From Ostreococcus lucimarinus (Eukaryota), in assembly GCA_000092065.1 (NCBI GenBank), contig CP000582.1: a stretch of 64,000 nucleotides of DNA. The stretch is one strand, 5' to 3'. Shown one piece after another: positions 1 through 37,891 of the stretch. The stretch's first letter is position 1, and each line of letters starts with the position of its first letter. Both the position numbers and the translations under genes were made by a program. Under the pieces are notes generated by a model, which saw only the letters and a list, made by a program, of their open reading frames with translations, did not search any database and was not told where the DNA came from.

Positions 1-6
1 GACGGT

Positions 7-882
7 GTGTCGAGTTTCATAATAGAAACTGGCGGCGGCATCGTGCGAGGACCGCTCGGCCGCTCGCCACTTTTGGAAACGCTCGCGTACGACGCCGTGA
101 TCGGGAACGCCCCAAAAAAGCTGTATCTCACGCCGAGCGCAGATGAATGTGGAGCGATGCCTTCGTGGGGTGTCATCGGCGAGATCAATGCAAAATACTC
201 TCAAGGCGTCGAAAACTTTTTCCGCGGCGCGCCAGGTATGTTGAACGAAATGGCGCTCCGTCTCGGTGGCTCACCGGACATTTTCCGGAGTAATCGTGAC
301 GCGCGATACGGATTGAACAATTTTTTAAGGCCCGCGCCGAGCTGTTCGATTCCGCCGACGTGTGCGATTCCAAAAACCACCACCGCGGATCCGACGGAGA
401 CGAGCGATCCGATCGCTCGAGCCGAGCTCGCCGCACTGTTCACCTCCACCGGCGGCATCCTCATCAACGTCCACGCCCTCAACCCTACGCTTCAGCCGCT
501 TGCGTCACAGCTCTCGCAATTCCGCGCGAGCCGAATCGACCTCTTCACCGACGAATTCGCCTTTGACGGCGTACGATGGATCGACCCGTTCACCGGCGCC
601 GCGCCGTCTTTCGACGACGTTTCCGCCGCGCCGTGCTTAACCTGTCTCCGTCGCGATCTCACCGGCCGCAATCGCGACGTTTGGATCGCTTACAACGGTT
701 CCATCGCCGCCTTCTCCACCAACCTCCCGTCTCCATCGCCGGGCTTCCGATGGATTCGCCGTTTCGACACCTCCCTCGCCGCGAGCGACGCCGCCGAGCC
801 GACGCCGCTCGTCGCGCAGTCGTACTCCGTCGCTCCCGCGTCGGTATCCGTGTGCGAGCTCGTCGAGCTCGCCAAGGCTTAG
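7..882 (+). CDS. hypothetical protein, possibly 5'-truncated by window edge
   Basis: Open frame from window start to stop at 882; ordinary amino-acid composition (not Arg-rich shadow ORF); no recognisable motif. Track start is GTG, so true N-terminus may lie upstream of the window. Confidence 0.3.
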   Translation: MSSFIIETGGGIVRGPLGRSPLLETLAYDAVIGNAPKKLYLTPSADECGAMPSWGVIGEINAKYSQGVENFFRGAPGMLNEMALRLGGSPDIFRSNRDARYGLNNFLRPAPSCSIPPTCAIPKTTTADPTETSDPIARAELAALFTSTGGILINVHALNPTLQPLASQLSQFRASRIDLFTDEFAFDGVRWIDPFTGAAPSFDDVSAAPCLTCLRRDLTGRNRDVWIAYNGSIAAFSTNLPSPSPGFRWIRRFDTSLAASDAAEPTPLVAQSYSVAPASVSVCELVELAKA

Positions 883-1195
883 CCGCGCGCCGCGCGCGCG
901 CGCGTCACCGCCTCTTCGCGCGAGGTTTTGTTTTAGTAACGCCCGCTCGCGCCCCAGCCATCAAAAAAATCTCAGCGAAAGAAAGATCTCTTCGAGTGAC
1001 GACGACGCATCAAAAGACGACGCGCCGCGCGCGCCGTCGACGCCCGCGGTCGAGCGCGCGAGAGAAAAACAAACCCGCCTCGTCGCGGTGCGAACCGCGC
1101 GCGCGCGCCCGCTCGCGCGCGCGCTCGACGTCGTCGAGGACATCGCGCCGCCGCCATCGACGCCGTCGACGCGAACGCTCGAACGCGCGCGCGCG

Positions 1196-4100
1196 ATGTC
1201 CATCACGCTCGAAAACAAGGGCTCGCTCCGCGCGTTCCCGTCCGTGGCGAGCATGTCCAACATGTCGGAGATGTCCGCGGCGAGTGTGGAGACGCAGGAC
1301 GAGCGGTCGGCGGATGAGGTGCGCGAGGCGAAGGAGGCGACGCTCGCGAGCGACCGCGGCGAGTTCATCGAGGGCGTCGAACAAGGGAAATTCGTCGGGA
1401 CGAAGATCGCGAGCGCACTGGGGGACGTGGCGGGGGAGGTGCGGGAGGCGGCGCTGTCGGTGGGACGAGCGGCGCTGTCGGATTTGACGGATAAGGCGCG
1501 GGGAGCGGCGTGCGCGGAGGCGCTTTTGGGGTATTTGACCGGACAAGGGGCGTGCGAACCGATGAGTCACGGCGAGGATAACACGCACGGAGCGGCGATT
1601 GCGTTGTACGCACACGCGGCGCAGCTGTTTTACGACGATGCGGGGAAGGTTGAGGCGATTAAGAGAATCGTGGAGGCGCTGCGAAGCGTGCGGGACGCGG
1701 GCGCGTTCATCGGCGCCCGAGCGATCGGTAACTTGGCTGCGGACGTCCGTGAAGCCGCGATCGCGATGCTCGGCGAATTGAAGTCCAAGGCGTTGACCGG
1801 GGTAGACATCGCCGAGCGAAGGCAAGGCGCGGCGGCCATGGCTGGGATTTGCAAGGGGGTCGGCGTCGCCGCGCTCGCGGACTTACACGTCGTGGATGAG
1901 ATTAAAAAGGCTATCGAGGATAAAAAGGATCCCGTCGCTCGCGCAGGGGCGTTGTTGACGTACGCGCACATGTGTCGAACCGCTGGTCGTGGATTTGAGC
2001 CGTACGCCATCGGTGAAGCTCCCATCGTTTTCACGTTGCTCGGTGATAGAAATGCCGATGTTCGCGAGGCGGCGAATTTGGCGCAGGCTGCCGTCGTCAA
2101 GGCGTTGCCTTTGACGGCGATGAAGCTTTTATCTCCGGCATTAAATGCTGGCATGCAGCACAAGGACTGGCAGAGTAAGCTCGGCTCGTTACACATCATG
2201 GGCGACCTCGCGAACAGAGTGCCGCAATCGTTCATGCGAGCCATTCCGGATCTGTTCCCGTCGTTTTTGGACACTCTATTCGATACGCACCCGAAAGTTT
2301 CTGCGCTTTGTGAAGAAATTCTTCCCAGTATTTGCTGTTGCGTAAAAAATGCGGAGGTTTTGGGCATGATGGACCTCGTATTGAGTGCGATTCGCACACC
2401 GCAAAAAGCCACCGAGGACTGCTTGGACAAGCTTATGGAGACGACATTCGTGAACTCCATGGACGCCCCGTCCTTGGCTGTGATTTTGCCCGTCATCTTG
2501 CGCGGCCTGCGTGAGCGAACGAAAGAGCTCAAGCAAAAGGCTGCAACGACTTTCGGAAACATTTGCGCTTTGGTCGACGACCCTCGCGATCTGCTCCCGT
2601 TTATTCCGGTGTTGTTGCCCGAGTTGGAAAAGGCTGAAGAGCACTCGCATCCAGACTTGCGCGAAGCCGCGACGCGCGCAAAAACGAGTTTGATGAAAGG
2701 TATCGACGCGAGCCAGTCCGAGGAGCGCAAGGTTGCGTCGAATATCGTGAAGGAGGCCATCAATGGCGCCGGCGTCAACGTTGACGTCGAGACGCAGTCG
2801 TATGCGGCCGCGCTCGGCGGTTGGGTCATGGATTCCGCCCCGTTGCGCATTCCTCCCTCCATCTTATCGAATGACATCAAGCGTGAGCTCACTCCGGTGC
2901 TCGAAAGCGCGTTCGAAGGGAACATTCAAGCCATTGAAAAGATTGCCAATGTATCCGTGATGGCATACAAGGGCCTCGACGAATCAGCCCTGCTCGACGA
3001 AAGCACGAAGGATTACATCGTCGATCTTCAAGGCATTATTTTAGCCTTTGCCGGTCGCGTGTTACTTCAACGCACGAATTTCACGCTCGAACGTGGTCGC
3101 ACGTACGGCATCGTAGGTCAAAATGGTACCGGTAAGACGACACTTTTGAATCGCGTCGCGGCGAAGGATATCGCTGGTTTCCCGGAGGACGTCTCTGTAT
3201 ACTACATTCAGCACGAAATTATGAGTGATAAGGAAGAAACGATCGTCGACTTCATGGTTCAAATGGTACCTGAAGGTGTCACACGAGACACCGTCGTCAA
3301 CACTCTCAAAGAGGTTGGTTTCGACGACGAAAAGATGGCTGCCACTATTCAATCCCTCTCTGGCGGGTGGCGTATGAAACTCGCCATCGCGCGCGCCATG
3401 TTGTGGGACGCCGATGTTCTCTTGTTGGATGAGCCAACAAACCACTTGGACACGAGTGCTATCGCGTGGTTGACCAACTATTTGAAGTCCTTAACGAACA
3501 CCACCATCTGCCTCGTGTCGCACGACTACGACTTCCTGGCCGAGGTGCTGACGGACGTCATTCACTTGAGTGAAAAGACGCTCACATACTATCCCATGAG
3601 CTTCCGCGATTTCCAGTCGTTGAAACCTGAAATCGTCGCCGCGTTGCCGAGCAACGACAATGCGATCGCTAAGCAGTCAAACATCGAAGGTGGCTCTGCC
3701 GACGGAGCGAAAGAGGCGAAAAAAGAGAGCGGCTTTGCCATCGACCAAATCGGCGACGACCAGCCGTCGCACATCAAACCGATTCGATTCCCCGAACCGG
3801 GTGATTTGGAGGGCGTCAAGTCTCGCGCAAAATGTGTCATGTACATGAAAGAGGTATCGTTCGGCTATCCAGGAACTTCAAAGAAGATTCTCAACGGTGC
3901 TACCGTGAAAATTACGCAAAACTCTCGAGCGGCGCTCGTGGGCCTCAACGGCGCCGGTAAGACGACGCTTTTGAAGTTACTCATCGGCGCACTTCAAATC
4001 GATGAAGGTGTCGGGGAAGTCTGGCGCCACCACAACTTGCGACTGTCCTACATCGCGCAACACTCCATGCAGCACTTGGAAGAGTCTTTGGAGAACACGC

Positions 4101-4918
4101 CGTTGGAGTACTTGCAAAACCGCTTCTACAATGGTCGCGATAAAGAAATCGCCAAGCGCGCCTCGCACAACTTGAGCAAGGACGAGCTCGCAACATCGCA
4201 AGAGCGTGGTAACATCATGGATGTCATTGGTCGCGTGATGCGAGGTAAACATCTGTTTTACGAAGTGCGCCGCGCCGGACGCGAAGAAAACGACACCGAT
4301 TGGGAAATGATGAGTTCGTTAGAGCGCAAGGATCCGTACGTGATGAAGATGGTGCGTAACTTTGACGAAAAGCTCAAGGCGATGCAATCGGGTATGGATT
4401 TACGACCGCTCACCAAAGAAGAAGTGCGCATTCACTTGGAAAACTTTGGTATTGATCAAGATTTGGCCATGGGGAAAATCAAGCGCATGTCCGGCGGGCA
4501 AAAGAGTCGACTCGTCCTCGCCGCGGCCATGTGGACGAATCCACACATCATCGCTCTTGATGAGCCGACAAACTACTTAGATAACGATACCTTAGCTGCG
4601 TTGACCAAGGCGCTCATTGATTTCAAGGGTGGGGTGATTACGATTTCCCACAACGAGCCGTTCGTGAACGCCGTGTGTGACGAATTGTGGCGAGTCGGCG
4701 ACGGAGTCGTCGTGACGGAGCCTGTAGCGGGTAAGGCGCCGAAGAAACTTTCTGTGGCTGAACGACGGGCTCTCAAAGCCGGCATCGACGCCGAGGAGGC
4801 GACGATGAAAGAAGCACAGAACAACAAAAAACTCACCGCCAAGGAAAAGAAGGAAGCGGCGGCGGCGAAGAAGGCGGCTGCTGGTCCGGTCAAGGATCTG
4901 TACGGTCGCGGCAAATAA
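1196..4918 (+). CDS. translation elongation factor 3 (eEF3-like ABC-F ATPase with N-terminal HEAT repeats)
   Basis: Track ORF 1088..4918 starts at GTG; first ATG is codon 37 (1196). HEAT-repeat N-terminus aligning to yeast EF3 (GFEPYAIGEAPIV..., KDWQSKLGSLHIMG). Two ABC cassettes: Walker A GQNGTGKTT and GLNGAGKTT; ABC signatures LSGGWRMKLAIARA and MSGGQKSRLVLAAA; Walker B LLLDEPTNHLD and IALDEPTNYLD. Lys/Ala-rich basic C-terminal tail typical of EF3. Confidence 0.85.
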   Translation: MSITLENKGSLRAFPSVASMSNMSEMSAASVETQDERSADEVREAKEATLASDRGEFIEGVEQGKFVGTKIASALGDVAGEVREAALSVGRAALSDLTDKARGAACAEALLGYLTGQGACEPMSHGEDNTHGAAIALYAHAAQLFYDDAGKVEAIKRIVEALRSVRDAGAFIGARAIGNLAADVREAAIAMLGELKSKALTGVDIAERRQGAAAMAGICKGVGVAALADLHVVDEIKKAIEDKKDPVARAGALLTYAHMCRTAGRGFEPYAIGEAPIVFTLLGDRNADVREAANLAQAAVVKALPLTAMKLLSPALNAGMQHKDWQSKLGSLHIMGDLANRVPQSFMRAIPDLFPSFLDTLFDTHPKVSALCEEILPSICCCVKNAEVLGMMDLVLSAIRTPQKATEDCLDKLMETTFVNSMDAPSLAVILPVILRGLRERTKELKQKAATTFGNICALVDDPRDLLPFIPVLLPELEKAEEHSHPDLREAATRAKTSLMKGIDASQSEERKVASNIVKEAINGAGVNVDVETQSYAAALGGWVMDSAPLRIPPSILSNDIKRELTPVLESAFEGNIQAIEKIANVSVMAYKGLDESALLDESTKDYIVDLQGIILAFAGRVLLQRTNFTLERGRTYGIVGQNGTGKTTLLNRVAAKDIAGFPEDVSVYYIQHEIMSDKEETIVDFMVQMVPEGVTRDTVVNTLKEVGFDDEKMAATIQSLSGGWRMKLAIARAMLWDADVLLLDEPTNHLDTSAIAWLTNYLKSLTNTTICLVSHDYDFLAEVLTDVIHLSEKTLTYYPMSFRDFQSLKPEIVAALPSNDNAIAKQSNIEGGSADGAKEAKKESGFAIDQIGDDQPSHIKPIRFPEPGDLEGVKSRAKCVMYMKEVSFGYPGTSKKILNGATVKITQNSRAALVGLNGAGKTTLLKLLIGALQIDEGVGEVWRHHNLRLSYIAQHSMQHLEESLENTPLEYLQNRFYNGRDKEIAKRASHNLSKDELATSQERGNIMDVIGRVMRGKHLFYEVRRAGREENDTDWEMMSSLERKDPYVMKMVRNFDEKLKAMQSGMDLRPLTKEEVRIHLENFGIDQDLAMGKIKRMSGGQKSRLVLAAAMWTNPHIIALDEPTNYLDNDTLAALTKALIDFKGGVITISHNEPFVNAVCDELWRVGDGVVVTEPVAGKAPKKLSVAERRALKAGIDAEEATMKEAQNNKKLTAKEKKEAAAAKKAAAGPVKDLYGRGK

Positions 4919-4965: not shown

Positions 4966-6849
4966 CTACACAGTCGTCGCTCCCTCGTTGGTGACGACCT
5001 CTTTTTCTACAAACTCAAGGATATCGTTCGACGTGATGTTGTCCTGAATTGATTTCCACGTCTTTTCGTAAGTGGTGATGAAATTCGGCGTATCTTTATC
5101 CGACCTCGTACGCAAGAAAACCCACGTTTTTTCATTCATATCCCACGTGCACTCGACGATTTTACCATCCAAGCTTTCGAGTGGATCCGTGCGTGTGACA
5201 AAATCGTCCTCGAGGCGGGCGAGCGCGCCGCCTTTTTGACCCACAAAGAGCAAACCTTTATCTCGCGATACGCGCAAGAGAAAGTCGACCGAGTTCAACC
5301 CTGGAAACTTCCACTTGAGCAGTGCTTCGTACGTTTGCGGGACGTACGGCACATTTGAGGGTTGGAAAATCAATCCATCGCTTTCGTGCGACAGGGCGGG
5401 AATGAACTTTTCGATGAATGAGCGCGCAAAATTCAGCGGGAAAAATTCCTTTGTGCGAACAGAAAACGGTTCTTTATGCGCGGCGTAAGCTCCACTCGGA
5501 CCCGCCTGCGCGAGAAACGCCTTTCTCGGTTCGACGACGAACTCACGCACAATGTTCAATCGCTCCAAGAACGGACGTTGCGTCACGCGTTCGCCGTTGA
5601 TGGCCATCAAATCGTACGCTAGATACCGGCGCGTCTGCTTCTTCGTCTGAGGATCGGTGTCGACGACCATCTCGCCATCCATCAACGTACAGTGGTGTAC
5701 GTTGGTTCCAAACTTTTTGTGCGGTAAAGGAAATCGCATTTGCACGCGGCGAATAGCGAATTTTCTATCGATCAAGTACGTGCCATCGCGCATAAGCATT
5801 AATAAATAACGCGTCCCGTCCGCCTTCCACGTCACGCTGTATGGTTCACGTTTCAAGAGCTCCATGTTGTTGCGACTCAGACTCACCGGCTGTGATCCAG
5901 GAAAGTTATCAACGCGTCCTGAGGCCCCATCGTCTGACATGACCGCCCACACGCAAAGCTTTCGAATCTCGTGCGCCATTTCCTCGTACACCTCCTCGCC
6001 GACGACGTCTTCGTGATGCATCGATCCCGCATCACTCTCGACCTCCGCAATCTCCATCGCGCGCTGCAACGCTCTGCGCGTCCCCGGTATCGGTGCTCGA
6101 CTGTGCGCTAACGTCTTCTTATACGTCAAATTCACCCTCGGATCGAACAGATCTCCCGCCGGTATCTTGTCGTCCGTCAACGGCGGCGCGTCGCTCAAAT
6201 CGTCGCTCTTCCACGCCGGCACTTTCGGATCCTTCGTCGTGCTAAACCTCCGTTCGAGATAATAATCAAACAAGCTCTCCAAGTACTCGCTCTTGTATAT
6301 CCCCGGCGGTCGCACTTTCGCGAACTCCGTCACCCACTTATTCAACTCGGGCCAGCCTCGCGCGCGCTGACAATAATGCGTCAACATCGCGCCCGTTCGA
6401 TTAAACCCGTGCGTACAGTGCACCAATATCGTCGGCGCATACCCTTGTCTCGCCTTTTCCTGCCATCCCGGATCGCTCGCCATCTCCGCCGCGCATCTTT
6501 GCACCGCGTACACGAATTCGCTCACCTCCCGCGGCGCCGGCGCGCCGTCCCGTCCCGCGCACCGAATCTTATACACCCTCACCCCGTACTTTTCGAAGTC
6601 GCTCGCGTCGTAATACCTCGACGTGTTCGTGAGATCGATCACCATCGCCACCGCGCGTCCTTTGCTCTGCGCCAGCGCCAGCGCGTCGTCGGGCGTGTAC
6701 CAATCCTCTCTCGGGACGTCGGCGTAGAATTGCTCCCTCAGCGGCGCCTTGGACGCGAGAAACATCCCCGCGAACGGTTCGGACATGCGCGGGCACGCCG
6801 TCCATCCCTCGGGCGTCGCCCACGCGCCGCGCGGGCCGTCGTCGGGCAT
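4966..6849 (-). CDS. bifunctional mRNA capping enzyme (Cys-phosphatase-type RNA 5'-triphosphatase + mRNA guanylyltransferase)
   Basis: True ATG at 6849 on minus strand. N-terminal dual-specificity phosphatase P-loop VHCTHGFNRTG (HCxxGxxR[ST]). C-terminal guanylyltransferase with KxDG nucleotidyl-transferase motif (WKADGTRYLLM) and downstream RFPLPHKKFG / DGLIFQP blocks. Domain order TPase-GTase as in metazoan/plant capping enzymes. Confidence 0.8.
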   Translation of the reverse strand: MPDDGPRGAWATPEGWTACPRMSEPFAGMFLASKAPLREQFYADVPREDWYTPDDALALAQSKGRAVAMVIDLTNTSRYYDASDFEKYGVRVYKIRCAGRDGAPAPREVSEFVYAVQRCAAEMASDPGWQEKARQGYAPTILVHCTHGFNRTGAMLTHYCQRARGWPELNKWVTEFAKVRPPGIYKSEYLESLFDYYLERRFSTTKDPKVPAWKSDDLSDAPPLTDDKIPAGDLFDPRVNLTYKKTLAHSRAPIPGTRRALQRAMEIAEVESDAGSMHHEDVVGEEVYEEMAHEIRKLCVWAVMSDDGASGRVDNFPGSQPVSLSRNNMELLKREPYSVTWKADGTRYLLMLMRDGTYLIDRKFAIRRVQMRFPLPHKKFGTNVHHCTLMDGEMVVDTDPQTKKQTRRYLAYDLMAINGERVTQRPFLERLNIVREFVVEPRKAFLAQAGPSGAYAAHKEPFSVRTKEFFPLNFARSFIEKFIPALSHESDGLIFQPSNVPYVPQTYEALLKWKFPGLNSVDFLLRVSRDKGLLFVGQKGGALARLEDDFVTRTDPLESLDGKIVECTWDMNEKTWVFLRTRSDKDTPNFITTYEKTWKSIQDNITSNDILEFVEKEVVTNEGATTV

Positions 6850-14550: not shown

Positions 14551-15029
14551 TATCTTTCGTCAGACTGTTTGCGCATACGAGGTGGTTTGGTACGTGTCGT
14601 CACACTGTTTGCGCATACGAGGTGGTTTGGTACGTGTCGTCACACTGTTTGCGCATACGAGGTGGTTTGGTACGTGTCGTCACACTGTTTGCGCATACGA
14701 GGTGGTTTGGTACGTGTCGTCACACTGTTTGCGCATACGAGGTGGTTTGGTACGTGTCGTCATACTGTTTGCGCATACGAGGTGGTTTGGTACATGTCGT
14801 CACACTGTTTGCGCATACGAGGTGGTTTGGTACGTGTCGTCACACTGTTTGCGCATACGAGGTGGTTTGGTACGTGTCGTCACACTGTTTGCGCATACGA
14901 GGTGGTTTGGTACGTGTCGTCATACTGTTTGCGCATACGAGGTGGTTTGGTACATGTCGTCACACTGTTTGCGCATACGAGGTGGTTTGGTACATGTCAT
15001 CACACTGTTTGCGCATACGAGGTGGTTTG
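14551..15029. repeat. 40-bp minisatellite, about 12 near-identical tandem copies (unit TCACACTGTTTGCGCATACGAGGTGGTTTGGTACGTGTCG)
   Basis: Read directly: exact 40-nt periodicity from about 14551 to 15029. Only two variable positions (CACACTG/CATACTG and TACGTGT/TACATGT); first and last copies degenerate. Unit is AT-richer than surrounding DNA. Lies between divergent ATGs at 14521 (minus) and 15306 (plus). Confidence 0.9.
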
Positions 15030-19930: not shown

Positions 19931-20683
19931 GAGCGCATCCCTCCGCGTCCCTCGCGCGCCCCGTCCCCGTCCCGCCTCGCGTCCGCACTCCGCGCCTCGG
20001 TCTCGTCCGAGTCGCCATGTCCGCCATGTCCGCCGCCGAGTACGACGCGCTCATCTATCCCGGCTTCCTCCGTCGCAACGTCGCGCGCTGGAACGACGAC
20101 GGCAGCGCCGCGCCGCTCAGCCGCAGCAAGGGCCCGCGCAACGAAACCTTCGTCCTGCAGCTGCGCAGCGGCGAGATCGATCAGGACGTCAGCGCGATCG
20201 AGGGCGAGGTGCGTCGACGCGATCGTCCGCGACCGCGCGCGACGACGACGACGCGACGCGACGCGACGCGAAAGGTTCTCGGCGCGCGCTCGACGAAGAC
20301 ACTGACCGGGACGCGCGTCCCTCGCGAGCGTCGACGCGCAGCTCGGATTAGCGCTCAAAGGGTTGAAGGGCGCGCGCAAGGGACGCGCGAGCGTGAACGC
20401 GGAGTGATGGCGCGCGCGACGTCGGCTTCGGCGCGCGAACGGACGACGCGCGAAGCCAGCCGCGAAGCCGCGAGACGCGCGAAGACGTTTGAGTTTGAGA
20501 TCGCGCGCCGACGCCGGAGATTCGAGGACGCGCGCGACGATCGACGCGACGAAATCGCGCGTTCCGTGGATTTTGTAAATTATTTTAGAGGTTTTGAGAC
20601 GTGCGGCGCGCGCGCGCGGCGCGCGGCGTCGAGCGGGCCGCGGCGGCGCGGGTCCGCGCGGCGTCAGAGCGCGCCTCGGCGGC

Positions 20684-21985
20684 ATGCTCCCGCTCGTCGC
20701 GCGTCACGCGCGCGTCGCGCGTTCGCTCGAGTCCGACGCGGCCTCGGCGTCGTCGGTCGACGACGACGGCGCGCTCGAGCGCTCGATCGCGCGGAATCGT
20801 CGCGAGAGACGCTCGAGGCGGTTGGATGCGGCGATTCGACCGACGTTTTTTGAGCTCATCGCCGCCGAACGGCTCGCTCCGAGCCTCAAGGGCGCGCTGG
20901 CGTACGCGTTGGGCACGCTGGCGAACGCCGGCGCGCCCGGGTTCGCGCACTACGCGCTCGACCGCGGCGATGAGGTGTTCGCGGCGTTGACGTTTTTGGC
21001 CGAGCTCAAGTCGTTCGCGAGCGGCGACGGGTCGCTCGCGGAGAGCGTGTACGGACTGCAGCGCGTGCCGAGAACGCTGACGGATGCGAGGGTGAGACGC
21101 GATGGAAGGTATAGGATCGATGCGTGGCAGCGAATCATGAGCGCGGCGTTGCTGGCGCTCGGGCCGTACGCGCGGAGCAAGGCGGCGGCGCTGCACGAAA
21201 CGCTCGCGCCCGAGTGTTACTTGGACGCGCGACGACGCGCGCCGCGAGTGTTTGACTCGAATGCGGACGATATGGGGGTGCGTGAGGGCGCGGAGGCGAA
21301 CGCGGCCGCGGTGGTGGCGGCGAGAAACGCGGAGGGAGGCGCGCGGGGCGTCGCGAAGCGGGCGTTCGTCGCGGCGTATCCGGTGGCGAACGCGTTGGTG
21401 GAGGCGGCGACGTTCGTGACTTGGACGGGGTACTTACTCGGACGATGGAACATAAACGATCCAACGTTGATGCTCGTCGATTGTTACGTCGTACGGGCGT
21501 TGCCCTCGGAGCTGGAGGCCAACGCGCGAGAACTCGAGGGGAGTCGACAGCGACAACTCGCCGGCGCGCACGCGTCGAAGAACGCCGCGACGCGCGCGTT
21601 GAGCGTCGGCGCGCTCAAGACGAAGAACTTCGTCATGGACTACGCACAATCAGCGCTCATCGCAGCCGTGATCGGGTTTAAACTCACCGAATGGTGGTAC
21701 GGCGCGGCGGAGGAGCGCGTAGTCAACGCGACAACGCTTCCGGTGCCGCCGCCGCCGCCGCGACCGCCACCGCACCCGAACGGCATTGCACTGCCCGAAA
21801 ACACCGATTTGTGTCCGCTGTGTCGGAAAGTCATTCGTAATCCGGCGGTATTGACGTCTTCTGGATACGTGTTCTGCTACGCCTGTCTCTACGCGCACGT
21901 CGATAGATACGGCGACTGCCCTGTGTCGTGTCATCGCGCCTTCAACGGCGTCGACGACATTCGCCGCATTTACGTGGGCAATTAA
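20684..21985 (+). CDS. PEX12: peroxin-12 (PEX12), peroxisomal RING-finger import protein
   Basis: Track ORF starts at GTG 20594; first ATG 20684. N-terminal Pex12 block PTFFELIAAERLAPSLK; internal WWY...LPVPPPPP; C-terminal degenerate RING CPLCRKVIRNPAVLTSSGYVFCYACLYAHVDRYGDCPVS closely matching human PEX12 ([25 protein letters not shown]...CPIT). Confidence 0.8.
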   Translation: MLPLVARHARVARSLESDAASASSVDDDGALERSIARNRRERRSRRLDAAIRPTFFELIAAERLAPSLKGALAYALGTLANAGAPGFAHYALDRGDEVFAALTFLAELKSFASGDGSLAESVYGLQRVPRTLTDARVRRDGRYRIDAWQRIMSAALLALGPYARSKAAALHETLAPECYLDARRRAPRVFDSNADDMGVREGAEANAAAVVAARNAEGGARGVAKRAFVAAYPVANALVEAATFVTWTGYLLGRWNINDPTLMLVDCYVVRALPSELEANARELEGSRQRQLAGAHASKNAATRALSVGALKTKNFVMDYAQSALIAAVIGFKLTEWWYGAAEERVVNATTLPVPPPPPRPPPHPNGIALPENTDLCPLCRKVIRNPAVLTSSGYVFCYACLYAHVDRYGDCPVSCHRAFNGVDDIRRIYVGN

Positions 21986-22009
21986 TATCGCACGCACGTC
22001 GTCGCGCCT

Positions 22010-22014
22010 TAGCA
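22010..22014 (+). promoter_or_regulatory. UGUAA-like poly(A) signal downstream of PEX12 stop
   Basis: TGTAA about 25 nt after the stop; UGUAA is the established green-algal polyadenylation signal. Similar TGTAA seen after stops at 18804 (about 18816), 42345 (about 42370), 43443 (about 43455) and 56087 (about 56106). Confidence 0.35.
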
Positions 22015-22237
22015 CTAGATGTAAAAACGAAACCGAGCGACGTCGAAGACGAAAACGACTCAACCGCGCGCGCGGATAAACGTGAAATCCAACCGCAAAC
22101 CACACGCTCACATTGAAACCAAAGTTCTTCTCGCCATTAAAACACGCTATTCATCGTTCCTCTCTTCTGCGTCGCTTCGCTACGCGAGAGGATCGACTCT
22201 ACTATACACATCGTCGTCGCGACTGCCCGACGCCCCC

Positions 22238-22573
22238 TTACTTCTTGTTCTTCTTCGCCAGCGCGGCGTAGTACTCCTGCTGCGCGCTTCGATGCTGCCA
22301 GTGATTCCACTTCCAGCCCGCCCCCGCGATTAATCCGAGCGTCATCCCGATCGCGACTTCCTTGTTGAAGTAAATGCGTTGCGCTGGGATGAGGAAAGGT
22401 CGATCGCGTTCGTCAGTCTCTGTGTTTGGATCGTTTAGGTTTGATCGACGGTCGCGCGAGGTTCACGACGCGCGTACGCCGCCGCGACGCGTCTCGCGGG
22501 CGTCAGACGACGATGCGATGTCGCGGTGATCGTTTCGAGACGTACCGATGCCGTGATAGACCGTGTGTGCCAT
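22238..22573 (-). CDS. two-exon mini-gene encoding a 57-aa single-TM protein (MAHTVYHGI|AQRIYFNKEVAIGMTLGLIAGAGWKWNHWQHRSAQQEYYAALAKKNKK); possible small mitochondrial respiratory-complex accessory subunit
   Basis: Not in ORF track. Minus strand: exon 1 22546..22573 (ATG GCA CAC ACG GTC TAT CAC GGC ATC G), donor G|GTACGT, 162-nt intron 22384..22545, acceptor CCTTTCCTCATCCCAG|, exon 2 22238..22383 ending TAA. Phase-1 junction reconstitutes an Ala codon and keeps the frame. Product has one hydrophobic helix and a basic tail; resemblance to COX6C/QCR-type subunits is weak. Confidence 0.45.
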
Positions 22574-22701
22574 CGTGTGCGCGTCGAGATGTGAGGCTGG
22601 CTCGGCGGGTGGTCGGCGGACGCGGCGCTCGCGACAAAGTCGAAGTCAATTTTGTACAACTAAATCATCTCTACACGCGCCAGACGCTCGAAGCGCGTGA
22701 T

Positions 22702-23310
22702 TTATAGCATGCGCAACTTCTTCAGCTTCGCTCGCTCCTTGGCTGACTTCTTGGCGATCGTCTTCGGGTTGGTTATCTCGCTCACGATGCCGACGCCCGT
22801 GCGTCGCGTATTCTCCTCCTTTAATAATTTCTTCGCCTCCCGTCGCTCGCGTTCGGCGCGAATCTTCGCCCCTCGCGCCGCCTTCGCGTTCGATTTCGCC
22901 TCCTGGAACCGCTTTTTCTCCTCCTTCTCTCGCATGCGGTCGTCCCAGGTTTTCGTCGACGGCGCCGCGCCAAGCGCCGACGCTCGCTTCGCCGGTTGTT
23001 TCCACATTCGTCCCGATTTCCGTCCAGCGATCGAGTCGTACGTCGCTTTCGGCGCCTTGTAGTTTCGATACAGTTCTCCGTCGACCATCTCTTCGTCCTC
23101 GCCGCCCTCGTTCGTCGCGGCGTCGTCGCTTTCGCGTTTTCTTTTCCCGTGTTTGACCGTCTTCGTGATGCCGCGATGGTCGACGCCGCTGCGGAAGACT
23201 TCCTGCGCGGGGACGTTCGCGCTCGCGTCCGCGTCGCCATCGGCGCGTTTTCTCGCGTCCGCGAGCTCGACGTCGACGACGACGCGACGCGCGCGTCGGG
23301 CGCCGGCCAT
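22702..23310 (-). CDS. Cgr1/CCDC86-family nucleolar protein
   Basis: ATG at 23310 (minus). Conserved core SGRMWKQPAKRAS...WDDRMREKEEKKRFQEAK...IRAERERREAKKLLKEE matching Cgr1 GKPWKVAKSAFR...EQRQKERLEKQQIKARE pattern; Lys/Glu-rich. Confidence 0.55.
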   Translation of the reverse strand: MAGARRARRVVVDVELADARKRADGDADASANVPAQEVFRSGVDHRGITKTVKHGKRKRESDDAATNEGGEDEEMVDGELYRNYKAPKATYDSIAGRKSGRMWKQPAKRASALGAAPSTKTWDDRMREKEEKKRFQEAKSNAKAARGAKIRAERERREAKKLLKEENTRRTGVGIVSEITNPKTIAKKSAKERAKLKKLRML

Positions 23311-23385: not shown

Positions 23386-24378
23386 CTAGCAATCGACGTT
23401 AAACGCGACGGAGACGCGCAGGACGGCGTCCGACGGGTGCTCGTCCGCGTCGTTCGACGGTTTTATCGCGCCGTCGGGGCGAGGAAACGCGCTCACGGCG
23501 TGAAGCGCGGCGCCGGAAAATAGAACGAGGTCGCCGACGCGCGGCGAGTGCGCAAAGTATCGCGACGGAGACGGCGACGAAGACGACGCCGACGCGCGGA
23601 CGCCGAGACATCCCGCGTCGATGGGGACATCGGTGGTGTTGGATAGATCGGGCACGGCGAGGTAAAGCACGCCGCTCCAACGATCGGCGCTGTCGTGCGC
23701 GTGGAGTTTGTTGAAGTCGCCCGGCGCGTTGACGTTGAGCCAACCGTACACGTCTCGCGAACACACGTCCTCGCGTTGCGCGCTCGTGCGCACGCGTGCG
23801 TACGCTTCGAGCGCGATGGCAGTAACGCTCGTCCACGTGGTGGGTCGCAGACGCGCGCGCGTCGGCGCGCCGGCGGCGGTATCGCTCGCGCCGGCGGCGG
23901 AACGGGAAGCGCCGGCGTCGTCGCCGCCACCGCCGCCAGCCGCGTCGTCGTTCTCTGAATCTGAATCTGATGAATCTAATAAATCCGCGTAGCTCTGATA
24001 GCCCCCACGGTTCGAGCGCACGACGGACACGTCGCTCCCCGGGCCCGGCACCGGGTCGCCGAGCGACCGCGCGGCGTCCTCGCGTCCGCGACGAAACTTG
24101 CGCAGCCCGAGCGGCACCAGATCACGCACCAACGCCTCGCGCGCGTCGTTCGTCAGCGTGAATACGTGCACGACGTCTGCGTCGGCCGCCGGGCTCGACG
24201 TCGACGCCTCGGCGATGTCGTAGGCGTCGTGCGTTTGGAAAAAGCTGTCCCGGTCGAACACTTTTTGGCCGTCGTTGAGCGGCCGTGGACGCGCCGTGGA
24301 TGCGTCGATGCGCGCGAGGGTGGCGATGTCGACCGCGTGTACGCCGTCGGCGGCCGCTATCAGCGTCGGGAGGTTCAT
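23386..24378 (-). CDS. hypothetical protein, possibly cupin/2OG-Fe(II) oxygenase-like
   Basis: ATG at 24378 (minus). Motif GWLNVNAPGDFNKLHAHDSADRWSGVLYL and distal LVLFSGAALHAV resemble the His-rich metal site of TIGR02466-type 2OG oxygenase-like proteins, from memory only. Acidic low-complexity insert (DSSDSDSENDD). Confidence 0.3.
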   Translation of the reverse strand: MNLPTLIAAADGVHAVDIATLARIDASTARPRPLNDGQKVFDRDSFFQTHDAYDIAEASTSSPAADADVVHVFTLTNDAREALVRDLVPLGLRKFRRGREDAARSLGDPVPGPGSDVSVVRSNRGGYQSYADLLDSSDSDSENDDAAGGGGGDDAGASRSAAGASDTAAGAPTRARLRPTTWTSVTAIALEAYARVRTSAQREDVCSRDVYGWLNVNAPGDFNKLHAHDSADRWSGVLYLAVPDLSNTTDVPIDAGCLGVRASASSSSPSPSRYFAHSPRVGDLVLFSGAALHAVSAFPRPDGAIKPSNDADEHPSDAVLRVSVAFNVDC

Positions 24379-36332: not shown

Positions 36333-37466
36333 ATGCGCGCGTCCGCGCGTCCGCGCGCGATCGTCGCGCGCGCGTCCAGCGCGTCGTTCGAGGATAAGTT
36401 GGCGCGCGCGCGCGGGCTGTTCGGCGTGGACTCCATCGACGCGCACGCGTCGCCGAAATCCGCGGGGTTTCGCGAGCGCGCGAGTCACGGCGTCGAGAAG
36501 ACGCGCGACGGCGCGCTGCGGCTGGTGAGCGTGCGCGCCGCGACGGGTGCGCTGGTGACGTCGGACGCGACGTCGCGCGACGACGCGGCGGGCGTCGAGC
36601 GGGCGAGGGAAATCTTCCTGAGGGTCGCGAACGACGACGCGTGGACGACGACGCGAGCGCGCGTGACGGCGGCGAATTTTTTAACGAATCGAACGTCGGA
36701 TGAGATCGTGATCGCGTGCACGCTGTCGGCGGAGAGCGGCGATGGCGACGACGCGACGTGGATGGAGTTCGCGGAGGCGATGCGAGCGCTCGACGACGCC
36801 GTCGTCGGGTGCGTTCGAAAGCGTAAGAAGACGCCGAAGCTCGTCGTCGGGCGCGATTACGTGACGGAGACCACGCGCTTGGTCGACGGTCGTTCGGTGG
36901 TTTTTAAACACGTCGAGGGGAGCTTTTCAAATCCGAACGGTGGCGTCGCCGAACTCACGGCGAATCATCTCGTTCGGATTTGCGCGGATATCGCCGGCCC
37001 GAAGACGAAATTCATCGAGCTGTACGCCGGTTGCGGAAATCACACGTGTTGCATGGCGCCGCAGTTTCCCGGCGGCGCGTTCGCGGTGGAGATTGATCCG
37101 GTTTTGGTGGAAGCGGCGCGAGAAAACTTTGCGCGCAACGGCGTTCGAGCGGAAATCGTGTGCGAACGCGCCGAGGATTGGATCGCGTCTCGCGAAAGTC
37201 CCACGAACGACCGCGACGTCGTCCTGCTCGTCGATCCACCGCGCGGTGGGTTGGACGCGCGCACGCTCGACGTCGTCACGCGCGAATTCGACGACGTCAT
37301 TTACGTCGCGTGTGACTGCGAATCACTCAAGCGAGACATCGACGACGAGCGCGTGGGATTCGCGGCGAGAGGGTTCGAACTGACATCGCTCGCGTGTTTC
37401 GACCACGCGCCGACGTCGCCGCGATGGATCGAAACCGTGGGGGTTTTTAAGAGGCGAGAGGCGTAG
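36333..37466 (+). CDS. TrmA/TRM2-family tRNA (uracil-5)-methyltransferase
   Basis: Track ORF 35160..37466 starts at GTG with about 390 junk codons; ATG at 36333 gives MRASARPRAIVARASS... (alternative 36279). SAM-MTase motifs FIELYAGCGNHT, VEIDPVLVEAARENFARNG, LLVDPPRGGLD, VIYVACDCESL; C-terminal nucleophile region FELTSLACFDHAPTSPRWIETVGVF (bacterial DMFPHTAHVESV equivalent). Last 18 codons and stop lie in copy 1 of the 160-bp tandem repeat. Confidence 0.75.
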   Translation: MRASARPRAIVARASSASFEDKLARARGLFGVDSIDAHASPKSAGFRERASHGVEKTRDGALRLVSVRAATGALVTSDATSRDDAAGVERAREIFLRVANDDAWTTTRARVTAANFLTNRTSDEIVIACTLSAESGDGDDATWMEFAEAMRALDDAVVGCVRKRKKTPKLVVGRDYVTETTRLVDGRSVVFKHVEGSFSNPNGGVAELTANHLVRICADIAGPKTKFIELYAGCGNHTCCMAPQFPGGAFAVEIDPVLVEAARENFARNGVRAEIVCERAEDWIASRESPTNDRDVVLLVDPPRGGLDARTLDVVTREFDDVIYVACDCESLKRDIDDERVGFAARGFELTSLACFDHAPTSPRWIETVGVFKRREA

Positions 37467-37891
37467 GAATAGACCGAGTAGCCGTAGCGAAAGACTTAAT
37501 AGCTATACACAATGCACAAATCACGTGATGACGTCGTCGTCGCGACTCGTGTCGGCGGCGTTTCGATTAAAGACGTCGCCGCGATGGATCGAAACCGTGG
37601 GGGTTTTTAAGAGGCGAGAGGCGTAGGAGTAGACCGAGTAGCCGTAGCGAAAGACTTAATAGCTATACACAATGCACAAATCACGTGATGACGTCGTCGT
37701 CGCGACTCGTGTCGGCGGCGTTTCGATTAAAGACGTCGCCGCGATGGATCGAAACCGTGGGGGTTTTTAAGAGGCGAGAGGCGTAGGAGTAGACCGAGTA
37801 GCCGTAGCGAAAGACTTAATAGCTATACACAATGCACAAATCACGTGATGACGTCGTCGTCGCGACTCGTGTCGGCGGCGTTTCGATTAAA
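37411..37891. repeat. 160-bp tandem repeat, about 3 copies, spanning the convergent 3' ends of two genes
   Basis: Read directly: unit GCGATGGATCGAAACCGTGGGGGTTTTTAAGAGGCGAGAGGCGTAGGA[A/G]TAGACCGAGTAGCCGTAGCGAAAGACTTAATAGCTATACACAATGCACAAATCACGTGATGACGTCGTCGTCGCGACTCGTGTCGGCGGCGTTTCGATTAAAGACGTCGCC repeats with period 160 at about 37421, 37581 and 37741; copies differ by 1 nt. Confidence 0.85.

Follow-up and report, generated by a model that had tools for sequence, protein, structure and literature searches.

A 57-residue, intron-split gene of Ostreococcus lucimarinus very probably encodes cytochrome c oxidase subunit COX5c

Here we describe a gene that an intron-blind listing of open reading frames passes over. 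It lies on the minus strand of a 64,000-nucleotide stretch of Ostreococcus lucimarinus DNA (NCBI GenBank assembly GCA_000092065.1, contig CP000582.1; hereafter the window), where two coding exons between positions 22238 and 22573 join into the frame of a 57-amino-acid protein. We put the probability at about 95% that this locus is the nuclear gene for cytochrome c oxidase subunit COX5c of O. lucimarinus CCE9901, which corresponds in the green lineage to fungal Cox9 and mammalian COX6c; the link to COX6C rests on a published structural superposition (PMC7815315). The gene is already known, and the reference annotation holds exactly this two-exon model. An exact look-up identified the product as ABO94784.1 / XP_001416491.1, "predicted protein [Ostreococcus lucimarinus CCE9901]", and it is also identical to UniRef100_A4RSH2 (UniProt A4RSH2, "Cytochrome c oxidase subunit 9, mitochondrial") and to EukProt EP00222_P001134. 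XP_001416491.1 has the identical 57 amino acids, comes from the same gene and follows the same two-exon model, with no difference from ours; its NCBI label is only "predicted protein", and the functional name is supplied by UniProt automatic annotation. The description of the gene as cryptic in a first-pass annotation of this DNA is therefore right in that an intron-blind ORF listing does not see it, and wrong in that the identical product is annotated as XP_001416491.1 / A4RSH2.

The two-exon arrangement had been proposed from splice signals alone. We read the minus-strand sequence from 21900 to 22900 and joined the pieces by script, and the donor, the acceptor, the phase, the product length of 57 amino acids and all other coordinates and sequences of that proposal were correct to the base. 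The coding part of exon 1 (22573..22546, minus) is 28 nt long, ATGGCACACACGGTCTATCACGGCATCG, consisting of the ATG plus 25 nt, and codes for MAHTVYHGI and the first base of the Ala10 codon. Its ATG is the first in-frame ATG downstream of an in-frame stop. A spliceosomal intron of 162 nt in phase 1 follows (22545..22384, minus; GTACGT...CCCAG), with the donor G/GTACGT and the 3' end CCTTTCCTCATCCCAG. The coding part of exon 2 (22383..22238, minus), which is 146 nt including the TAA stop at 22240..22238 and has the 3' end AAGAAGTAA, codes for residues 10-57, comprising the TM helix and a basic tail rich in Trp, His and Tyr, and it is in this exon that the homology to COX5c and Cox9 lies. The joined coding sequence of 174 nt, with a GC3 of 0.81, translates into the 57-amino-acid protein MAHTVYHGIAQRIYFNKEVAIGMTLGLIAGAGWKWNHWQHRSAQQEYYAALAKKNKK. 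Its hydropathy maximum (Kyte-Doolittle 1.66 over 15 residues) lies at residues 19-33, which align with the helix region of the plant COX5c chain 7jro_h, and the single Gly-rich TM helix spans approximately residues 18-35, leaving about 22 residues after it. Tryptic peptides of the product include IYFNK, EVAIGMTLGLIAGAGWK and SAQQEYYAALAK.

In the absence of splicing, the frame that opens at the ATG runs into a stop within the intron after 36 amino acids, MAHTVYHGIGTSRNDHRDIASSSDARETRRGGVRAS. This is how the gene appears in a six-frame ORF list, from which it is missing at a 60-aa cut-off, as the first-pass annotation had said of both exons; at a cut-off of 30 aa that statement no longer holds, and two fragments are listed, one of 36 aa (22573..22463, minus) that consists of exon 1 running on into the intron, and one of 35 aa (22345..22238, minus) that starts at an internal ATG of exon 2. 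Two plus-strand ORFs also cross the locus (22374..22529 and 22426..22707). We treated them as spurious, because GC-rich sequence yields ORFs in every frame and because the transcripts are all minus-sense. Upstream, a spacer of 128 nt (22574..22701) separates the stop of the preceding minus-strand gene from the COX5c ATG and presumably holds both the 5' UTR and the promoter, and the surroundings of the ATG, GCGCACACGATGG, are common to the window and Ostreococcus tauri. A TATAAA at -133, which overlaps the stop codon of the upstream gene, was considered as a promoter element and set aside, as it is not conserved in O. tauri. An Rfam scan at gathering thresholds and a tRNA scan of the whole window gave no match, and no RNA gene overlaps the locus.

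Direct evidence for splicing comes from assembled sequencing contigs. A 57-aa protein from a large protein database, 98% identical to the product, sits on a 1,092-nt Logan contig (L001) that aligns to the window from 23316 to 22546 and then from 22384 to 22088, leaving out precisely the predicted intron. Looking up the window product by exact sequence yielded a further five contigs (L005-L009), each from another sequencing run, and in six of six transcript contigs 22546 is joined to 22383, with the usual 1-nt ambiguity of a G. The runs behind the six contigs are SRR28369094, DRR699210, SRR17229564, SRR28369099, SRR25907285 and SRR17229574. L001 ends in CCCGTACTCTGCGTTGATACCACTG, which we take to be the reverse complement of the SMART template-switch oligo, and therefore derives from a cDNA library. 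L008 is colinear with the window to 22113 and continues as poly(A), and L007 ends at 22114. Because of this poly(A) tail and the end of L007, the transcript sense is the minus strand and the 3' UTR is approximately 125 nt long (22113..22237), with poly(A) addition at about 22113-22115. The junction that had been put forward for checking at 22545/22384 is thus present in six cDNA-derived contigs. L004, the only intron-containing contig examined, begins with what is presumably a Nextera-type adapter sequence and fits genomic DNA.

The same contigs show some features of their own. All six run on into the upstream gene on the same strand, and L005 (22177..25073) covers three genes unbroken, with no further intron removed across 2.5 kb of upstream genes. 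Such fused contigs could reflect overlapping UTRs, read-through transcription or merging by the assembler in a very compact genome. In addition, positions 900..1184 of L006 and the last 31 nt of L009 have no match to the window. These are probably chimeric assembly ends and leave the junction evidence unaffected.

A Pfam scan of the 57-aa product returned no family, even at E-values up to 10, and the family assignment therefore rests on searches of PDB chains and of large sequence databases. A phmmer search against PDB chains found chain h of 7JRO, "Cytochrome c oxidase subunit 5C" of Vigna radiata (E 1.1e-6, residues 14-53), chain 2F of 9F5X, the Cox5c of the Chlamydomonas reinhardtii respirasome (E 1.7e-5, residues 7-55), and, at E ~3e-3, chains of the fungal "Cytochrome c oxidase subunit 9" (8uck_i, 3e-3). 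In the PDB searches with the protein and with two profiles, the sole other match up to E = 10 was an unrelated periplasmic binding protein at E 0.36. With a 4-sequence profile the match to 7jro_h strengthened to E 1.2e-8, and with a 19-sequence profile to 2.3e-24, alongside 9f5x_2F at 3.8e-12 and yeast Cox9 at 2.2e-3. The similarity to Cox9 is weak but reproducible (6giq_i, E 2.2e-3 to 2.3e-2, query residues 12-56), and no mammalian COX6c chain was found in the PDB sequence searches at E up to 10 (up to 1 for the 19-sequence profile). Among sequence databases, a first word-indexed homologue search gave four close matches, and an exhaustive HMMER search was needed to reach homologues named as COX5c: phmmer against 1.84 billion representatives returned 35 relatives at E <= 1e-3, 12 of them at <= 1e-10. 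All relatives that carry a name from their source are COX5c or COX Vc, namely "Cytochrome c oxidase subunit Vc" of O. tauri and "Cytochrome c oxidase subunit 5C" of Myrmecia bisecta and of Zingiber officinale; two further relatives come from Tetraselmis transcriptomes and carry transcriptome identifiers only. In the 19-sequence alignment, which spans Mamiellophyceae, Tetraselmis, Trebouxiophyceae and angiosperms, E18, G26, G30, K34 and H37 are invariant and G22, W33, W38 and Y48 are near-invariant, and all nine are present in the window protein. These comparisons show that the protein is a member of the COX5c family. The first-pass annotation had seen in it a small respiratory-complex subunit, with COX6C/Cox9 named first, and this is borne out by the PDB and profile searches. 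Structure prediction followed by fold search was left aside, a single TM helix being poorly discriminating and the sequence evidence decisive.

The gene has relatives in which both the peptide and its division into exons can be compared. The O. tauri protein, XP_003080060.1, is 72% identical and has 55 rather than 57 amino acids, its C-terminal tail being 2 aa shorter; a second, divergent relative on a metagenomic contig (L002) has 64-71% amino acid identity, so the peptide is conserved in related genomes, as the first-pass annotation had anticipated for a real gene. In O. tauri the orthologous gene covers 395 nt, and a brute-force search there gave a single GT..AG solution. Like the window gene, it has a 28-nt exon 1 and a phase-1 intron that splits the same Ala codon (G/CG), with the acceptor GCGCAG/CG, whereas its intron is 227 nt long with the donor GTGCGT, compared with 162 nt and GTACGT in the window. 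L002 has a 31-nt exon 1 (MAGHTVYHGV), the donor GTGCGT and a 218-nt intron in the same phase. The exon-1 peptide M-A-(G)-H-T-V-Y-H-G-V/I is kept in O. tauri, in L002 and in more distant prasinophyte-like relatives, where it reads MAGPTVYHGVAQK..., MAATVYHGVAKN... and MGQTVYHGVAKN....

Two sets of sequences stand apart from this comparison. A contig from JGI 3300021964 (L003) has 95% amino acid identity in exon 2 and aligns only downstream of 22502; its positions 1..138 are unrelated to the window, and exon 1 is absent from it. This contig is probably chimeric, or carries a rearrangement, and was left out of the intron comparison. In another prasinophyte-like relative (P0017, P0018 and P0019, the first on a 942,852-bp ENA contig) the N-terminus MAGPTVYHGVAQKVY... 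is uninterrupted in a genomic ORF, and the sequences diverge directly after ...QSYYDK. This suggests that the species may lack the codon-10 intron and have an intron near the 3' end instead.

Introns of O. lucimarinus have been characterized before. In EST-confirmed introns of this species outside the atypical half of chromosome 2, Irimia and Roy (2008) reported a 5' consensus of GTGCGTG, an acceptor CGCAG and a distance of 20-35 nt from branch point to AG, with the extended branch motif GACTGACG in 66.5% of those introns (PMC2483917). The COX5c intron carries this branch motif, exactly matching the published consensus, at 22418..22411 on the minus strand; its branch A (22413) precedes the final base of the intron by 29 nt, within the published range. 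Its donor GTACGTC agrees with the consensus at 5 of 7 bases and its acceptor CCCAG at 4 of 5, and the orthologous introns of O. tauri and L002 use GTGCGT; a CTGAC branch motif lies 31 nt from the AG in the O. tauri intron and an ACTGAC 32 nt from it in L002. Judged by its branch motif and the distance of this from the AG, the COX5c intron is an ordinary one for the O. lucimarinus genome. We also considered an introner, or another repeated mobile intron, and rejected it: within the 64-kb window, a blastn search with the intron as query matched only the intron itself and short GC-rich, low-complexity stretches.

Intron position and phase are common to the window, O. tauri and L002, with lengths of 162, 227 and 218 nt and sequence that is only ~52% alignable (window versus L002). 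Given this, a start-proximal intron might itself be functional, either because COX5c expression depends on it, through intron-mediated enhancement, or because regulated intron retention throttles the supply of the protein. In an intron-poor genome, at least three Ostreococcus lineages retain it at the same codon despite its divergence in length and sequence, it is the one intron removed in a contig whose 2.5 kb of upstream genes lose none (L005), and unspliced RNA would code only for the 36-aa peptide that ends at the in-intron stop. There is also a precedent in Arabidopsis COX5c-2, the expression of which depends on a leader intron in its 5' UTR (PMC5216049). However, that intron is in the 5' UTR and the one described here is in the coding sequence, at codon 10, so that the two are not positionally homologous; simple inheritance predicts the same positional conservation and explains the data equally well; and the intron-containing contig L004 is, as set out above, what genomic DNA would give. 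We therefore regard a regulatory role for the intron as unlikely, though conceivable.

Comparison of the window with L002 at the nucleotide level separates coding from noncoding sequence. Identity is 81% in exon 1 and 73% in exon 2, and drops to 57-62% in the UTRs and to 52% in the intron. Differences in exon 2 number 15/8/27 at codon positions 1, 2 and 3, with third positions dominating, a pattern that, read from nucleotide changes, is the signature expected of purifying selection on the protein. The neighbourhood is shared as well. Directly upstream on the same strand lies a gene for a 202-aa, highly basic protein rich in Lys, Arg and Glu (22702..23310, minus), which has no Pfam match and a 192-aa counterpart in the same position in O. 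tauri, and next to it a gene for a 2OG-Fe(II) oxygenase (23386..24378, minus); on the other side a Pex2/Pex12-RING gene (20594..21985, plus) converges with COX5c. The order Med26, 2OG-Fe(II) oxygenase, 192-202-aa protein and COX5c converging on Pex2_Pex12 is common to O. tauri.

A gene under such constraint could conceivably still be an expressed pseudogene, or a redundant paralogue whose product works outside complex IV. Arabidopsis has three COX5c paralogues and plants carry several (PMC5877523), and our view of the genome is confined to this window. Nevertheless, the frame is unbroken, no family-invariant residue is missing and the substitutions follow the pattern of purifying selection, while O. 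tauri has a single syntenic orthologue and the transcript occurs in six samples. An expressed pseudogene or redundant paralogue is accordingly very improbable, and a functional COX5c gene remains by far the better account of the locus.

The product could also have been another single-TM subunit, such as QCR9 or QCR10 of complex III or NDUFA1/MWFE of complex I, which are alike in size and single-helix architecture and which the first-pass annotation had named as alternatives. PDB searches to E = 10 gave COX5c and Cox9 chains, no complex I or complex III subunit (QCR9/10, NDUFA1) appeared in those made with the protein and with the two profiles, and the named homologues are all COX5c or COX Vc; we give this assignment practically no weight and drop it in favour of COX5c. 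Equally negligible is the view that there is no gene here and that an ATG stretch, a GT..AG pair and an ORF unconnected with them have come together by chance in GC-rich intergenic sequence, for while such sequence gives many spurious ORFs in all frames and exon 1 has only 9 codons, the exact junction recurs in six transcript contigs, one with a poly(A) tail, the product has significant homology to a COX5c of solved structure, and exon 1, intron phase and synteny are kept in O. tauri and L002.

What the COX5c protein of Ostreococcus is likely to do can be proposed from its homologues. Published structural work equates Vigna COX5c (VrCOX5c) with bovine COX6c (BtCOX6c) and yeast Cox9 (ScCox9), and in the Vigna structure the subunit is positioned next to COX2 and COX4, lacks the extra C-terminal helix of bovine COX6c, and contacts QCR6 with its C-terminal part (Leu51) at the interface of complexes III and IV on the intermembrane space (IMS) side (PMC7815315). 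In Chlamydomonas, Cox5c mediates contacts of complex IV (CIV) with CI, CIV and CIII (bioRxiv 10.1101/2024.09.03.610704). In the scheme we propose, the minus strand is transcribed, the 162-nt intron that follows the 28-nt coding part of exon 1 is spliced out and the mRNA is polyadenylated about 125 nt past the stop, all of which the transcript contigs show; translation would then yield 57 aa with a single Gly-rich TM helix and a basic, aromatic C-terminal tail. By homology, COX5c would sit in the inner membrane of the mitochondrion, next to COX2 and COX4 at the periphery of complex IV, to which it would belong as a structural subunit; its C-terminal tail WKWNHWQHR...YYAALAKKNKK would lie on the IMS side, and it may stabilise complex IV and take part in its contacts with adjacent respiratory complexes.

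Compared with these homologues the Ostreococcus protein is a reduced version. Plant COX5c (7JRO chain h; Arabidopsis COX5c-1/2/3) shares with it the core KE-x3-G-x3-G-L-x2-G-x2-WK-x2-HW, the single TM helix and a length of ~60 aa, at ~35-39% identity, and differs in having an acidic ...GEISVVxxEE tail in angiosperms in place of the basic KKNKK tail found here; in gene structure, the intron of Arabidopsis COX5c-2 is in the 5' UTR, whereas that of Ostreococcus splits codon 10. Chlamydomonas Cox5c has 96 aa, with extensions that help to form an "IMS tail", whereas the Ostreococcus protein of 57 aa is minimal and has no room for an extension. Yeast Cox9 is published as occupying the same structural position as plant COX5c and has weak sequence similarity to the protein described here (E 2e-3 to 3e-3). 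In bovine COX6c an additional C-terminal helix contacts COX2 and COX4, and the 57-aa Ostreococcus protein is too short to have one. By homology with these systems, the Ostreococcus protein is most likely a single-helix, peripheral complex IV subunit that does the same basic job as its homologues.

The catalogues of metagenomic proteins handle this gene less well than the reference annotation does. Across JGI, ENA, Tara and Logan, 246 contigs carry the 35-aa fragment that starts at the internal ATG (22238..22345, minus; P0006) as a "hypothetical protein". Two further database entries, P0002 and P0004, are artefacts in which the intron is read through into exon 2, and the first residues of P0002 are translated from adapter sequence on its contig.

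Elsewhere in the window, we noted several features at a distance from the gene. A tandem array at 14557..15029 consists of 11.8 copies of the 40-nt unit TCGTCACACTGTTTGCGCATACGAGGTGGTTTGGTACGTG, 97% identical, and at 37412..37891 there are three tandem copies of a 160-nt unit that are 99% identical and AT-richer than their surroundings. GC content falls to 52-53% between 2001 and 6000, compared with ~64% elsewhere in the window, and this low-GC segment coincides with an EF3-like ABC/HEAT ORF (1088..4918, plus) and an mRNA capping enzyme ORF (4966..6849, minus). Further GC dips occur at 44-46 kb and 60-62 kb.

COX5c is a routine housekeeping gene that is present in RefSeq and UniProt, and its recovery here says nothing new on respiration. 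Splice signals read by eye gave the exact model, which supports this way of working for very small genes of eukaryotes. Where introns are ignored, ORF calling overlooks the gene or cuts it short, prokaryote-style gene callers systematically truncate it, and picoeukaryote genes with micro-exons of this kind are systematically mis-called in metagenomic protein catalogues.
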